Below, in pieces: positions 1 to 6,086 of a stretch of 6,147 bases of DNA; position 1 is the stretch's first letter, and the number at the start of each line of letters is the position of its first letter. Source of the DNA: a virus (Duplodnaviria; Heunggongvirae; Uroviricota; Caudoviricetes); IMG/VR virus record IMGVR_UViG_2671180637_000023. One strand, given 5' to 3'. A program made the position numbers and the translations under genes. Below the pieces are notes generated by a model. It was not told the origin of the DNA. It saw only the letters and a list, made by a program, of their open reading frames with translations, and did no database searches.

Positions 1-262
1 CAGTCCGGAACAATTTGAAAACCAGAACCTCGCTTAGGCCTGTGTCCATATTACGTGGGTAGGATCAAACCTCATGCTATTTTCGCTTATATGCCTCTAA
101 AGGCATGGCACTTAAATAGATAAAAGCACCACAAAAGCATAAAAAAACCACACAGTAAAACCGCAATATGAAACAATAACAGATAATTAAACCAAAAACA
201 GATAGCGCATTGTGATAATCATTCAATACTAAACAAAATATAAACAGTGGAGCAATATGTAA

Positions 263-329
263 TTGACTCATTAAGTTAGATATAAAAAATACATATTCAA
301 TCATTAAAACGATTGAATGGAGAACTTTT
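263..329 (+). promoter_or_regulatory. ompT 5' control region: candidate sigma70 -35 TTGACT (263-268), A/T-rich -10 area (~281-297), Shine-Dalgarno GGAG (319-322) 7 nt before the ATG
   Basis: Seen in sequence: TTGACT hexamer, then an A/T-rich stretch with no unambiguous -10 at ideal spacing, then GGAG before ATG at 330. The exact promoter cannot be fixed without mapping the transcription start. Confidence 0.3.
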
Positions 330-1283
330 ATGCGGGCGAAACTTCTGGGAATATTCCTGACAACCCCTATTGCGATCAGCTCTTTTGCTTCTACCGAGAC
401 TTTATCGTTTACTCCTGACAACATAAATGCGGACATTAGTCTTGGAACTCTGAGCGGAAAAACAAAAGAGCGTGTTTATCTAGCCGAAGAAGGAGGCCGA
501 AAAGTCAGTCAACTCGACTGGAAATTCAATAACGCTGCAATTATTAAAGGTGCAATTAATTGGGATTTGATGCCCCAGATATCTATCGGGGCTGCTGGCT
601 GGACAACTCTCGGCAGCCGAGGTGGCAATATGGTCGATCAGGACTGGATGGATTCCAGTAACCCCGGAACCTGGACGGATGAAAGTAGACACCCTGATAC
701 ACAACTCAATTATGCCAACGAATTTGATCTGAATATCAAAGGCTGGCTCCTCAACGAACCCAATTACCGCCTGGGACTCATGGCCGGATATCAGGAAAGC
801 CGTTATAGCTTTACAGCCAGAGGTGGTTCCTATATCTACAGTTCTGAGGAGGGATTCAGAGATGATATCGGCTCCTTCCCGAATGGAGAAAGGGCAATCG
901 GCTACAAACAACGTTTTAAAATGCCCTACATTGGCTTGACTGGAAGTTATCGTTATGAAGATTTTGAACTCGGTGGCACATTTAAATACAGCGGCTGGGT
1001 GGAATCATCTGATAACGATGAACACTATGACCCGGGAAAAAGAATCACTTATCGCAGTAAGGTCAAAGACCAAAATTACTATTCTGTTGCAGTCAATGCA
1101 GGTTATTACGTCACACCTAACGCAAAAGTTTATGTTGAAGGCGCATGGAATCGGGTTACGAATAAAAAAGGTAATACTTCACTTTATGATCACAATAATA
1201 ACACTTCAGACTACAGCAAAAATGGAGCAGGTATAGAAAACTATAACTTCATCACTACTGCTGGTCTTAAGTACACATTTTAA
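330..1283 (+). CDS. ompT: Outer membrane protease OmpT (omptin family, protease VII)
   Basis: 317-aa ORF whose translation I recognise as E. coli OmpT over its whole length. 20-aa signal peptide MRAKLLGIFLTTPIAISSFA, then mature STETLSF. Catalytic residues present at precursor positions D103/D105 (MVDQD) and D230/H232 (NDEH), which are mature D83/D85/D210/H212. Ends in the C-terminal aromatic residue typical of beta-barrel OMPs (...LKYTF). SD GGAG upstream. Confidence 0.97.
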   Translation: MRAKLLGIFLTTPIAISSFASTETLSFTPDNINADISLGTLSGKTKERVYLAEEGGRKVSQLDWKFNNAAIIKGAINWDLMPQISIGAAGWTTLGSRGGNMVDQDWMDSSNPGTWTDESRHPDTQLNYANEFDLNIKGWLLNEPNYRLGLMAGYQESRYSFTARGGSYIYSSEEGFRDDIGSFPNGERAIGYKQRFKMPYIGLTGSYRYEDFELGGTFKYSGWVESSDNDEHYDPGKRITYRSKVKDQNYYSVAVNAGYYVTPNAKVYVEGAWNRVTNKKGNTSLYDHNNNTSDYSKNGAGIENYNFITTAGLKYTF

Positions 1284-1299
1284 GAACGCCAACTAAAAT

Positions 1300-1328
1300 T
1301 TCCCCGAGGTGAAAATCGCCCCGGGGAA
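1300..1328. terminator. GC-rich hairpin between convergent ompT and appY (candidate terminator)
   Basis: TTCCCCG-AGGTG / CGCCCCGGGGAA pairs into a ~11-bp stem (one mismatch, one G-U) with a 5-nt loop, 17 nt after the ompT stop. No U-tract immediately 3' on the + strand; a short A-tract precedes it on +, which is a T-tract on the - strand. Not a textbook intrinsic terminator. Confidence 0.35.
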
Positions 1329-1532
1329 TAACTAGCCATTTCAATGTAACAATTAACCCTTAAAATAAACCCAGAAGGTTATTAACTAAATCACATAGAA
1401 AACCATCAATTATAGTATGTATAAAATAGGCGACAGCAACCCAATTACAAATTAATGGTTCCAGAATATCACATCAGAAAAAACGCTGTATAATATTATA
1501 ATTAACATGTAGACAACTTGTAATAAACATTA

Positions 1533-2282
1533 TCAGTCAATTGTTTTGTTTATTCCATCTGTGACGCCGATTATTTTCTCAAAATAATGAGATGGCGTGA
1601 CACCATAATAATCTTTAAATGCACATATGAAATATGAAGTACTGTTATAGCCACATTTCTGGGCTACGACATTGATAGAATAAGAGTTTGAAGTTATGAG
1701 TTTTTTTGCATACCTCATCCTAGTATCTCTCAATATTTCAGTAAATGACGTTCCTTCATCCCTTAATCTTTTTTTCATTAAACTTTCACTCGTATAAATC
1801 AATTCCGCAATATCTTTTAAATGCCATTGTCGCTCAATATTAAAACTGATTATTCCAGTAATTTTACAGGTGAATGTATTTATATTTGTTAGTATAAAAG
1901 AATTTACACTTTCGCGTTTTTTGAACATGGCAAGTAAGGATATACATAGTCTTTCTTTTAACCAAAGGGAGTATGAGTCTGCTATTTTAATCCCTTCAAA
2001 CAGAGAAAAAACAAGCGATAATGGAGGTTCCTCTTCAGCAATATAGCCATTCTTATCAAGAGTAAATTTGCCAGGCAGCTCATTATTCACGTCGATAAAA
2101 AAGGATAAACATGTTTTCTTATCTATATCAACAATTCTTAGTTTAGAGGGGCATACTGGTAACTCCCTTCTAATTTTGTCGCTTACAATAAACAATGAAT
2201 TTTTTTTGAACGAGATAACTCTCCTGTTTATAATTAAATCAAATGATTGACAGATGAAAACTACGGAGCAAACATAATCCAT
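1533..2282 (-). CDS. appY: AraC/XylS-family transcriptional activator AppY
   Basis: 249-aa ORF. N-terminus [21 protein letters not shown] and overall sequence recognised as E. coli AppY. C-terminal dual helix-turn-helix of the AraC family (...[46 protein letters not shown]). SD AGGTG 4 nt before the ATG. Coding sequence conspicuously AT-rich (by eye roughly 30% GC), consistent with horizontal origin. Confidence 0.95.
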
Positions 2283-2828
2283 CTTGCACCTATCATAAAA
2301 TTAAAACAAGTTGATAGCAGTCAAATAACAACCAATTAAATACACAATCATAATCAGGATGATGTGCATTTATATTTTTATACACAAAATTATAGTTTGC
2401 AAATTTTAATAAATTTCATTTAAGATTAAATTATTATATGTATATTGTTTTTTATTCTAACGTATTTCAAAGTTACATTTTTCAACGCTTACTATACTTT
2501 TTATTAACATAAACTCACTACAACGCACCTGAAACCTCTTGCTATATATATGTCAACCGTTTGAATTTAAAATAAAAAGAGTATCATTTTTACTTGCATT
2601 TCTTATCAAGTCACATTCAACAACAGTAAAAAAAACATTATTAGAACCATTCAATTAACAAAAAACCAACATCCAGCTTGCTTAATTTTTCTTTATTAAA
2701 CGATATTGAAAATCAATTGATAAAATACATCTAAACAACCTTTTGGGGCGCAAAAGCATAACATCAAACAAACAAATAACACACCGAAAAAACTCACAAT
2801 TAATAACCTATGATATACATACTGTTTA
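2283..2828 (-). promoter_or_regulatory. Long, extremely AT-rich appY upstream/leader region (promoter(s) and probable nucleoid-protein silencing target)
   Basis: ~550 bp with no ORF of 60 aa or more on any frame, very low GC, many A- and T-tracts. It sits directly upstream of appY on its coding strand. Individual -10/-35 elements cannot be assigned confidently because the whole region resembles promoter sequence. Confidence 0.45.
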
Positions 2829-3089
2829 TTATGGTTGAATAAGCCACTCGATATCTGGTGCTACGGAAGTGTCCACACGGTTTAGCAGCACCCGATACTT
2901 TTTTCAGGCTTCCAGCAACGATCTTTCTTCCTCCGTTGCGATTTCCAGATCTACAGCATCCTGCAGTGGCGCAATATACTCACTGAATTCCTGGATGTAG
3001 AACTGTGTGGTGACGGTCTTCCAGCTATTCGGCTCCTGCTGTATTGAAGCATACCAGGCTATTTCAATATCGCTATGCTGCGGCAGCAT
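2829..3089 (-). pseudogene. tfaX: Tail fibre assembly protein remnant (tfaX-like), interrupted by an in-frame TGA
   Basis: ORF 3089..2904 (61 aa) ends ...[23 protein letters not shown] then TGA. The same frame continues [24 protein letters not shown] to a TAA at 2829-2831. The intact tfa in this window reads ...[44 protein letters not shown] at the homologous position, so the TGA replaces a Trp codon (TGG to TGA). The N-terminal 38 aa do not match lambda-type Tfa, so the fragment is chimeric or truncated. Confidence 0.8.
2843..2983. repeat. Direct repeat copy A (tfa 3'-end homology, within tfaX remnant)
   Basis: By-eye alignment with 3892-4032 gives roughly 85% identity over ~140 bp, including a 40-bp identical core (2924-2963: TTTCTTCCTCCGTTGCGATTTCCAGATCTACAGCATCCTG). 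Confidence 0.85.
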
Positions 3090-3145
3090 TTAACCCCTTG
3101 TAATTCATTGCCATAATTGATTTAATTCACAAATAAAACTATAAC

Positions 3146-3814
3146 ATGGTGAAATTAATGAAAAAAAACACAGATGATGGGGCTAAAATTTACACACCAC
3201 TTACCCTAAAGCTTTATGACTGGTGGGTTTTGGGAGTATCAAATCGGCTTGCATGGGGATGTCCTACAAAGGAACACCTTCTTCCACACTTTCTGGAACA
3301 TTTAGGTAACAACCATCTGGATATTGGTGTTGGAACTGGGTTTTACCTTACTCACGTACCTGAGAGTAGTCTGATATCTTTAATGGATTTGAACGAAGCT
3401 AGCCTGAACGCGGCATCTACAAGGGCTGGGGAATCAAAAATTAAACATAAAATTAGCCATGATGTTTTTGAACCTTATCCCGCGGCGTTACATGGTCAAT
3501 TTGATTCCATTTCCATGTTTTACCTTCTTCACTGCCTGCCTGGAAATATATCTACAAAAAGCTGTGTAATACGCAATGCGGCGCAGGCCTTAACTGACGA
3601 TGGAACTCTATACGGAGCCACAATTCTTGGCGATGGAGTTGTGCACAATAGCTTCGGTCAAAAACTGATGCGCATTTACAATCAGAAAGGCATCTTTTCA
3701 AACACAAAAGATTCCGAAGAAGGCTTAACACATATACTCTCAGAGCATTTCGAGAATGTTAAAACCAAGGTTCAAGGTACTGTAGTAATGTTTTCCGCTT
3801 CAGGGAAAAAATAG
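3146..3814 (+). CDS. ybcY: Class I SAM-dependent methyltransferase, substrate unknown (ybcY-like prophage cargo gene)
   Basis: 222-aa ORF. Glycine-rich SAM-binding motif I LDIGVGTGF, an acidic residue at the end of the next strand (ISLMDLNE), and a downstream hydrophobic motif (DSISMFYLLHCLP), typical of the Rossmann-fold small-molecule/RNA/protein methyltransferase class. No DNA-methyltransferase target-recognition or DPPY/NPPY-type motif seen. No SD before the ATG at 3146; the ATG at 3158 is preceded by GGTGA, so the true start may be 3158. Gene symbol inferred from position between tfa and tfaX next to appY, as in K-12 DLP12 from memory. Confidence 0.75.
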   Translation: MVKLMKKNTDDGAKIYTPLTLKLYDWWVLGVSNRLAWGCPTKEHLLPHFLEHLGNNHLDIGVGTGFYLTHVPESSLISLMDLNEASLNAASTRAGESKIKHKISHDVFEPYPAALHGQFDSISMFYLLHCLPGNISTKSCVIRNAAQALTDDGTLYGATILGDGVVHNSFGQKLMRIYNQKGIFSNTKDSEEGLTHILSEHFENVKTKVQGTVVMFSASGKK

Positions 3815-3868: not shown

Positions 3869-4453
3869 TTACTCCCTGACAGGGTTCGTAGGCCACTCAA
3901 TATCAGGTGCAGTTGATGTATCAACACGGTTCAGCAACACCCGATATTTTTTCCAGGCTTCCAGCAATGAGGTTTCTTCCTCCGTTGCGATTTCCAGATC
4001 TACAGCATCCTGAAGCGGCGCTATATGCTCACTGGCTACCTGCATCAGGCTGTTTTTTGTTTCTTCCGCCTCCCGGATCCGGAACAGTTTTTCTGCTTCC
4101 GTATCCTTCACCCAGTCTGTGCCGTTCCACTTCTGAAACTCCCCTTCCGGGGATAACCAGGTAACATTTTCCGGTAATGAGCCGAGTTCAGAAATAAATA
4201 ACGCGTCCCCTGATGCCACGTCATAAACTGTTTTACCCCGATGGTCTTCAACAAGATGCCACGATGCCTCATCACTGTTGAAAACAGCCACGAAGCCTGC
4301 CGGAATATCTGGCGGTGCAATATCGGTACTGTTTGCTGGCAGACCTGTATGAGGCGGAATATATGCGTCACCTTCACCAATAAATTCATTAGTTCCGGCC
4401 AACAGATTATAAATTTTTATGGTCTGTGGTTGTTCACTCATTCTGAATGCCAT
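3869..4453 (-). CDS. tfa: Phage tail fibre assembly protein (lambda Tfa family chaperone)
   Basis: 194-aa [77 protein letters not shown]..., recognised as the lambda/Rac/e14 Tfa family. SD GAGG 8 nt upstream. Its start codon overlaps the stf stop (TAATG at 4451-4455). Confidence 0.93.
3892..4032. repeat. Direct repeat copy B (3' end of intact tfa)
   Basis: Partner of 2843-2983; 40-bp identical core at 3973-4012. Confidence 0.85.
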
Positions 4454-5688
4454 TATGCAAGCCTCACAATATAGTTAAATGCGATGTTTTTGACGGTGTT
4501 TTCCGCGTTACCAGCAGCGTTAACGGTGATGGTGTGTCCATGTGAACCAATCGCAACGGAGTGCGTATGAGCACCAATACCGACAGTATGTGCATGTGCG
4601 CCTGCGCTTGCAGCAGTGCCGGACAGCGAGTGGGTATGAGCACCATCTGATGATGTCTTCCCTGCATTACGAGTCTGGCCACTACCGCTTGTTGTGCTCA
4701 TAATCCCCGCGCTTAGATTTGAAATCGCGGTATAACCATTAGGGAAAATGCTCGTGTTCGTGCCACCAAATGCACCGGAACTCTTGTGTTGGTGCGCACC
4801 GGCACTATTTGCAGTCCCGCTAATACTATGGGTATGCGCCCCGGTGTTATTCGTGGATTTGGTTCCGTAATCAAACGACGATGTGTTTTTCGTCCCCAAA
4901 TCCGTACTGGATGCGCTGGCGCTGTGGGTGTGCGATTTAATGCCGTCCTGTTCCTGAGACAATACGGCACGACCACTGGCGGGTTTGCCCTTAATCGTCC
5001 AGCCACGCATATCAGGGATCACGCCTGACGGATAAGCGACTGCAAGTTTCGGGTATGCAGATTTGTCAAAAGTCTGCCCCTGCATCAGGGCATAGCCAGA
5101 CGGAACGGTATCTGATGGCCACGGGATTGGTGCGCCAGGCGGATAAAACTGCTCTGATGGCGTATAGAGTGAATAAACTGTACCGTCCGTTAACCCTTCC
5201 GGCTTATTAGCTGAATATGCTGGTGACGTATGAATCGTCACGCTGGCATTACTGGTATAATCCCATTGAATATTTACACCAGTCGCATAATTTCCGATTG
5301 CAACGTAAATATCGTAAGTATCACCAGATGTATTGACCCAGGCAAAATTTGTAAACCCTGTCGATGTGCGCTGCCATAAAGCACCAGTAATCCCCTTCGG
5401 ATTACCATTACCTGCACGCAAAACAAGTTCAGATATACCTGCCTGTTGAGGTGACCCCACGTTAAATCCCGCGCCACCAATCAACGTAATTGAAACAACA
5501 GAACTCGCCTGTGGCATGGTTACCGTTGCTAATTTGAACCAACCAGCACCACCGCTGAATAACATTGTTGTTGAGTTAAGCGTACCAATATCTTTCGGCG
5601 TCAGTGTTATATCCGCTGAAAGCGCCTTACCATTCACCTTACGGGCAGAAGGTACCCGACCATTCGCATTATCATTAGCTGCTTTCAC
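4453..5688 (-). CDS. stf: Side tail fibre protein Stf, C-terminal portion only (5'-truncated gene; receptor-binding distal region with HxH repeats)
   Basis: 411-aa ORF from a GTG at 5686-5688; the frame stays open upstream to 5760, immediately after the lom remnant stop, with no convincing SD, so this is an N-terminally deleted fragment of a ~1000-aa class gene. The C-terminus ...[40 protein letters not shown] and the collar-like motif [20 protein letters not shown] are characteristic of lambda/Rac Stf-type fibres. Six HxH motifs lie between residues 252 and 385. Stop overlaps the tfa start. Confidence 0.88.
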
Positions 5689-5756
5689 TGCTTTCGGTGT
5701 CGCGGCAAGCGTTTCAGATGCGCTGTTGGTTGCACTACTGAGCTGGACAATTCCTT

Positions 5757-6086
5757 TTATTCATTCACGCGCACAGACGGCCCCGCCATCACGCTGAACC
5801 AGCGGTTACGCACGGAATCTTCATGCCAGCGGGTATCGCTGTAACGGGTAAGCTGGCGATTCTTGTCTCCTGCATAGCTGAATGACGTCACCAGCCCCAG
5901 TGTGTCCGTAAACTCATAACGGTATTTCACGTTAATCCCGTTCAGATCATCACTGCCGGGAACGTTCGTCCGGGCATGAAGATACCCCGCGCTCAGCGTG
6001 GACTGATGTTCAGACGCCCATGCAGGCGCACCGGATACGGCCAGACAAATGGCTGCGGACAAAATGGCGGCACAAACTTTACGCAT
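5757..6086 (-). pseudogene. lom: lom remnant: N-terminal 109 codons of an Ail/Lom-family outer membrane protein, truncated
   Basis: MRKVCAAILSAAICLAVSGAPAWA signal peptide, then [85 protein letters not shown], recognised as the lambda Lom N-terminus (full length about 200 aa). The frame ends at TAA 5757-5759 where full-length Lom continues, so an intact 8-stranded barrel cannot form. SD GAGAGG 6092-6097. Confidence 0.88.

Follow-up and report, generated by a model that had tools for sequence, protein, structure and literature searches.

The AT-rich DNA upstream of appY in a DLP12-type prophage is very probably an H-NS-silenced promoter island, as in Escherichia coli K-12

The spacer between tfaX and appY in E. 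coli K-12 is known in the literature as the appY-associated promoter island. It is PI1 of Shavkunov et al. (2009; PMC2731890), who defined such islands as regions of at least 300 bp with at least eight PlatProm starts, on either strand, per 100-bp sliding window. In vitro, RNA polymerase forms several heparin-resistant open complexes on the K-12 DNA, at about -190, -155 and -90 and also inside appY, as demonstrated by gel shift, permanganate footprinting and run-off transcription (PMC2731890). Transcription from the island runs both ways in vitro, while appY mRNA was undetectable in vivo by primer extension (PMC2731890). Panyukov and Ozoline (2013) list the island as PI 582438_1016; according to the part of Table 1 that covers it, it is foreign by several predictors and H-NS-bound in all three compiled ChIP-chip sets, those of Grainger, Kahramanoglou and Oshima (PMC3661553), and it is the longest among the 78 islands of the table part examined. 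Repression of appY by H-NS goes back to Atlung 1996, as cited in PMC7054387 and PMC3798270, and SELEX with the RpoD holoenzyme recovered the spacer as a site that carries an H-NS flag (PMC3946193). It is disputed whether the silence is due to H-NS or to the excess of promoters: appY promoter mutations that raised expression left in vitro H-NS binding undiminished (Bykov et al., 2020; PMC7054387), while Fuqua and Wagner (2024) contest the reading that excess promoters silence (PMC11661796). All experimental evidence on this spacer comes from K-12.

Acquired regulators and operons that are silenced by H-NS and have a dedicated antagonist share with appY a long AT-rich tract, H-NS occupancy and near-silence in standard growth. 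The same xenogeneic silencing and anti-silencing systems also share relief by a response regulator bound far upstream (ArcA for appY) and spurious bidirectional initiation.

The DNA analysed here (the window, 6,147 nt) comes from a DLP12-type lambdoid prophage, of which it represents the tail-fibre end, and it is reversed with respect to MG1655. According to the ORF map and the RefSeq records of K-12 and close relatives, it contains the following features.

330-1283, + strand: ompT
1533-2282, - strand: appY, 249 aa, with the ATG at 2282-2280
2283-2828, no strand assigned: AT-rich intergenic, very probably regulatory DNA upstream of appY (the spacer), the intergenic part of the published tfaX/appY promoter island
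2829-3089, - strand: tfaX remnant, the 3' part of a tail-fibre-assembly gene and the distal border of the AT-rich block
2904-3089, - strand: tfaX ORF call; the tfa homology extends down to 2829
3146-3814, + strand: intact ybcY-like methyltransferase gene
3869-4453, - strand: tfaD
4453-5688, - strand: tail-fibre gene

The distal border of the spacer agrees with the tfaX pseudogene annotation of strain 510016 (RefSeq), which starts at the base equivalent to window 2829. The remnant and the 3' end of tfaD share 87.5% identity. Reckoned to the tfaX ORF call instead, the spacer would measure 621 bp (2283-2903).

Two observations concern other parts of the window. In Rfam, family IS009 (RF02111) is listed as an RNA gene; it has matches in the 3' coding part of tfaD (3912-4110, - strand; 222.7 bits against a gathering score of 117) and in the tfaX remnant (2863-3066, - strand; 108.9 bits). 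Since both matches lie on the sense strand of tail-fibre-assembly coding sequence, this family may model conserved protein-coding DNA rather than RNA. Separately, a 109-aa ORF (5757-6086, - strand) that follows the tail-fibre ORF (4453-5688, - strand) has a signal-peptide-like start, MRKVCAAILSAAICLAVSG..., and looks like a Lom/Ail-type outer-membrane protein; the junction around 5689-6086 looks like a deletion or recombination scar.

The earlier note had described a gap of about 550 bp upstream of appY as extremely AT-rich and free of ORFs, and this description holds. The spacer is 546 bp long (A 226, C 93, G 44, T 183) and has a GC content of 25.1%, compared with 41.5% in the whole window, 31.7% in appY and 47.9% in the tfaX remnant; the GC content of E. 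coli is about 51%. The window's 100-bp minimum, 12% GC, is reached at about 2368. Homopolymers of A or T of at least four bases occur at 3.5 per 100 bp, as opposed to 1.5 in ompT. No frame of the spacer is free of stop codons for more than 43 codons. This is not beyond chance, as the longest stop-free run in dinucleotide shuffles is 59 +/- 14 codons and reaches at least 43 in 94% of them. The remarkable traits of the spacer are its length and extreme AT content, and not the absence of ORFs. The strand asymmetry that had been pointed out is also real. The + strand contains 8% G and 17% C, its GC skew over 2500-2800 is about -0.46, and all 80-nt windows within 2441-2840 have more C than G. Segment 2740-2800, given earlier as an A/C-rich example, has 30 A, 15 C, 7 G and 9 T, and part of this is explained by one simple tract.

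2765-2776, + strand: (CAAA)3, with one unit deleted in 3 of the 9 sequences aligned

Throughout its 546 bp, the spacer is 99.1% identical to that of K-12, and its neighbours, tfaX and appY, are identical in kind. The two sequences differ at five places, by four substitutions (2318, 2444, 2462, 2496) and by one additional A/T in the run 2628-2635. The two loci share their position, the -35 and -10 hexamers of the dominant promoter and the ArcA repeats. By contrast, the prophage beyond tfaX differs, the window carrying an intact ybcY and a tail-fibre gene. The ybcY-like gene encodes a class I SAM-dependent methyltransferase of 222 aa; intact in the window and in several strains, it is a pseudogene in K-12 MG1655. 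As the spacer is 99.1% identical to the listed K-12 island, we count it as a promoter island as well. The island coordinates were transferred by arithmetic from the appY ATG (582904 in K-12, 2282 in the window), and the mapping was verified on the ArcA site.

Approximately 1733-2748, no strand assigned: PI 582438_1016 (K-12 U00096.2), from the part of PMC3661553 Table 1 that lists it; its ends lie at about -466 (upstream of the appY ATG) and about +549 (within appY)

We thus consider it very probable that the spacer is the upstream regulatory region of the horizontally acquired appY, silenced by H-NS as a promoter island in the manner known from K-12.

Horizontal acquisition is indicated by the annotation of the prophage as DLP12, by the patchy distribution among genomes and by carriage on phages. 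Of 5426 complete E. coli genomes, 835 contain the spacer and 837 the appY CDS; the two adjoin in every locus fetched. Nearly all full-length copies of the spacer are at least 98% identical. A distant blastn search of E. coli genomes, phages and plasmids returned only copies of at least 98% identity and no diverged homologues. Two phage records (Kati and PhiR68_2) and four "plasmid" records carry the spacer too. Among the GTDB species representatives, AppY was found in no species except E. coli, save on one metagenome-assembled contig, DEQI01000113.1 (3.3 kb, "Planococcaceae bacterium UBA3370"). Its appY region is 99.7% identical to the window and is most likely bin contamination.

In the alignment of nine sequences, the constant block spans window positions 61-2939 and contains ompT, appY, the spacer and 111 bp of the tfa remnant. 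Its left edge lies at window 61 in all strains, while the prophage modules to the right vary by strain. The block lies beside an integrase and a tRNA-Pro gene in phage Kati, a typical position for cargo. Insertion sequences have entered the region repeatedly, in strain 510016 among others: IS3 in ompT, IS1 in ybcY and IS1B twice, once within the spacer (strain VTB97584v) and once in appY (another strain).

Silencing by H-NS requires extended AT-rich tracts, and 546 bp at 25.1% GC have the base composition of a target of xenogeneic silencing. Because of this composition, the spacer is, according to published work on K-12, a preferred H-NS substrate. The high-affinity 10-mer of H-NS, TCGATAAATT, is to our knowledge not needed for binding. 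It is not enriched here: allowing at most two mismatches, the whole window has seven matches, compared with 11.1 +/- 3.3 in shuffled sequence, and only two of the seven fall within the spacer. The suggestion that this DNA is a target of H-NS-type silencing is right but not new: binding in all three K-12 ChIP-chip sets appears in the relevant part of the island table (PMC3661553), and repression of appY had already been published. The spacer is a known, ordinary regulatory region under xenogeneic silencing.

Promoter-like motifs follow the same pattern. Hexamers of the form TANNNT occur at 9.5 per 100 bp. The neighbouring genes have 2.5-5.2, which makes the spacer two to four times as dense in them, but shuffles of the region reach the same density, so that there is no excess over composition. 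Full -35/-10 matches in the spacer are also not in excess (3, compared with 4.0 +/- 2.1 in shuffles). Since the K-12 spacer is full of -10-like hexamers, RNA polymerase binds and opens its DNA at many places on both strands, as published work has shown. A-tracts show a weak 11-bp helical phasing signal (z 2.6, uncorrected for the six periods tested). Searches for repeats and tandem repeats in the spacer gave only short matches at chance level. In the simplest reading, the behaviour of the spacer follows from its base composition.

The published appY starts and the elements close to the gene map to the window as follows.

2374-2402, - strand: dominant appY promoter in reporter plasmids, with -35 TTGCAA (2397-2402) and -10 TAAAAAT (2374-2380) (PMC7054387, PMC4469952)
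Approximately 2363-2367, - strand: appY start at -81 to -85, reporter plasmid (PMC4469952)
2395-2396, - strand: RegulonDB appYp start at -113/-114 from 5'-end RNA-seq (PMC4469952, PMC7054387), transferred by arithmetic
2307, - strand: sigma-S-dependent in vitro start at -25, as given in the passage of PMC7054387 that cites Maciag 2011 (PMC3141248), transferred by arithmetic
2287-2291, - strand: Shine-Dalgarno-like AGGTG, 4 nt upstream of the ATG, read in the sequence

Both hexamers of the dominant promoter are read directly in the window sequence. According to the authors, each appY start was detected only through a special approach (PMC4469952). An intergenic probe gives a sigma-S run-off signal (PMC3141248). 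The mapped starts are at a distance of 25-114 nt from the ATG (PMC4469952, PMC7054387), so that about 430 of the 546 bp remain as upstream DNA outside any leader; this gives no support to the idea of a long leader in the earlier note. Nor is there a sign of a riboswitch or another structured leader: the leaders are 25-114 nt long and have no Rfam match and no unusual fold, the 143-nt segment with the appY leader and start folding at z -0.52 relative to dinucleotide shuffles. Most of the spacer is upstream silencing and anti-silencing DNA.

The best-defined input in this upstream DNA is that of ArcA.

2617-2672, - strand: ArcA site with five direct repeats phased by 11 bp (K-12 582515-582569; PMC3798270 supplementary tables)

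The site corresponds to -275 to -221 relative to the -114 start and lies about 335-390 bp upstream of appY. Park et al. (2013) reported an ArcA ChIP peak with this five-repeat site and a 4.6-fold decrease of appY expression in an arcA mutant, and proposed that ArcA acts at appY by anti-repression of H-NS (PMC3798270). The first 37 nt of the site match the window exactly at 2636-2672. In the remaining part, the run 2628-2635 has eight A in the window and seven in all eight other sequences compared; because of this extra A/T, repeats 4 and 5 are spaced by 12 bp instead of 11.

Other inputs have been published too, so the notion of a region with many regulators was correct and already in print. 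In genomic SELEX, RcdA has the spacer as its top target (PMC3535384), DpiA represses appY according to a citation in PMC7054387, and sigma-S acts on appY (PMC7054387, PMC3141248). The RcdA palindrome TTGTGTACAttTGTACACAA (PMC3535384) does not occur in the window, even with three mismatches allowed. The source itself is inconsistent on this point: the text of PMC3535384 puts TTGTGTACAttTGTACACAA in the tfaX-appY spacer, and the legend to its Figure 1 gives the 22 clones to the ybjJ-rcdA spacer. No mapped site falls within the distal part, 2700-2828.

This raises the question whether most of the spacer, especially 2700-2828, is a functionless, decaying leftover of acquisition, with only the proximal ~115 bp being of importance. 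The spacer is indeed more variable than appY: identity of at least 99% is seen in 85% of genomes for the spacer and in 93% for the appY CDS. Among the nine aligned sequences, 25 of 546 columns of the spacer vary (9 of them by indels), compared with 10 of 750 and no indels in appY, a comparison that is biased because the sequences were picked for divergence in the spacer. The indel columns of the spacer fall in homopolymers or simple tracts. Moreover, ORF lengths, promoter-like sites, TANNNT hexamers and folding energy are all at the level of shuffles. On the other hand, the ArcA ChIP site, with the 4.6-fold drop of appY without ArcA, lies 335-390 bp upstream, well beyond the proximal part (PMC3798270), and the spacer is covered by SELEX peaks of RcdA and RNA polymerase (PMC3535384, PMC3946193) and, in the part of the island table that lists it, by H-NS ChIP signal (PMC3661553). 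Given also that a long AT-rich tract is what silencing by H-NS needs, it is highly unlikely that most of the spacer lacks function.

The earlier note had further suggested that the spacer might hide a small RNA or a small protein. The first part of this suggestion touches upon RNAs that have been described in K-12.

Approximately 2427, 2496 and 2507, + strand: starts of weak RNAs directed away from appY towards tfaX, at -145, -214 and -225 (PMC4469952)

These divergent RNAs were seen by primer extension with a dual-reporter plasmid and by qRT-PCR on the chromosome, and the authors suggested "a novel RNA" (PMC4469952). An unannotated + strand small RNA gene that starts at about 2427-2507 and has a function of its own could account for them, and there is a near-consensus -10 hexamer, TATACT, at 2493-2498 (+ strand), placed to serve the reported -225 start. 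This hexamer is itself polymorphic, with A or G at 2496: it is TATACT in the window, phages Kati and PhiR68_2 and strain KW21, and TATGCT in K-12 and four others. The starts are published; none of the other marks of a discrete gene was found. Rfam gave nothing within 2283-2828 at E-values up to 10, so no curated family is represented. A scan of both strands over 2100-3200 found no terminator-like site. Nine overlapping segments of 115-150 nt, which cover the leader and both strands of the rest and thereby the + strand of 2427-2849, are not folded more stably than dinucleotide shuffles (z -0.6 to +1.1). Covariation cannot be tested, as the homologues diverge too little (at least 98% identical).

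The presumed body of such an RNA is interrupted by indels (2477, 2543-4, 2628, 2659 and 2765-8) in strains that are 98-99% identical, and the MG1655 RefSeq record has no annotation here. No constant 3' end is possible beyond 2939 because the DNA downstream differs between prophages. Both orientations are indeed transcribed, given the published weak divergent RNAs (PMC4469952); a hidden small RNA gene seems very unlikely to us. As a separate matter, we considered a hairpin at 2740-2756 as the terminator of the tail-fibre operon and rejected it, as it has six pairs (two of them G-C), no proper T-run and two internal polymorphisms.

The + strand RNAs resemble the pervasive transcripts that arise from AT-rich, H-NS-bound DNA and are held in check by H-NS and Rho; both have weak starts, on the + strand inside the island in the present case, and the + strand RNAs would be C-rich, G-poor and untranslated. 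Untranslated, C-rich and G-poor RNA is the kind on which Rho acts, and for this reason the + strand RNAs are probably ended by Rho. In the literature, we found no report of Rho dependence at the appY locus and no usable Hfq/RIL-seq or bicyclomycin data on appY.

For a small protein, the spacer offers the following reading frames.

2301-2369, - strand: speculative 22-codon upstream ORF (MHIILIMIVYLIGCYLTAINLF) in the appY leader, with an ATG start and no Shine-Dalgarno sequence
2438-2512, + strand: 24-codon ORF that starts 11 nt after the reported -145 divergent start
2539-2658, + strand; 2553-2654, - strand; 2696-2797, - strand; 2743-2838, + strand: four distal ORFs of at least 30 aa, each frame-broken in some of the nine sequences

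A small protein or a regulatory upstream ORF could be encoded by either of the first two. The 22-codon ORF starts with ATG, is wholly contained in the -113 leader, stops 18 nt short of the appY ATG and is unbroken in each of the nine sequences, and the 24-codon ORF begins shortly after the -145 start. Still, neither is preceded by a Shine-Dalgarno sequence, nor is any other ATG-started small ORF in the spacer, and hydrophobic peptides rich in I, L, F and Y, such as these, are the default product of AT-rich DNA. The 22-codon ORF shows three changes, one silent and two that alter an amino acid; one strain carries a frameshift in the 24-codon ORF, whose remaining changes all alter an amino acid. 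The larger distal ORFs are broken by indels in strains that are 98-99% identical, and those at 2539-2658 (+ strand) and 2553-2654 (- strand) are full-length in the window alone, owing to its unique extra A. Codon periodicity is absent from the spacer (period-3 z 1.5, compared with 3.2 in appY, 4.9 in ybcY and 14.9 in ompT). Comparison of the small-ORF peptides with Pfam and PHROGs gave nothing significant, and the three "hypothetical protein" calls made here in phage Kati are the same fragile ORFs or use the same start codon. We regard a small protein from this spacer as extremely unlikely.

A more speculative version of these ideas is that either the 22-codon ORF (2301-2369, - strand) is translated and couples ribosome traffic to appY translation or mRNA survival, or the + strand promoters at about 2427-2507 give rise to a non-coding RNA with a function or to a long leader that extends to the intact ybcY (3146-3814, + strand). 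We treat this as a long shot.

The preferred reading, a regulatory region silenced by H-NS, may be put together as follows. DLP12-type lambdoid prophages would carry, at their tail-fibre end, an AT-rich block of cargo made up of ompT, appY, the spacer and 111 bp of tfa remnant, and within this block the spacer would have the highest AT content. As published for K-12, H-NS would cover the AT-rich tract and keep appY nearly silent, and productive appY mRNA would originate at a few starts, none of them more than about 115 nt from the ATG. Under anaerobiosis, ArcA bound about 335-390 bp upstream would raise appY expression, with RcdA and sigma-S as further positive inputs and DpiA as a negative one, again as published for K-12. 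ArcA probably antagonises H-NS, by displacing or restructuring it, rather than recruiting polymerase. The weak + strand RNAs would be products of spurious divergent initiation and not gene products. Being 99.1% identical, the allele in the window is expected to behave like that of K-12.

The appY locus has served as a model for promoter islands and for the control of a prophage-borne regulator by H-NS and ArcA since 1996-2009, and there is little new in the present copy in this respect. What the window adds is small natural variants, namely one additional base within the ArcA site and an improved -10 hexamer for a divergent start.
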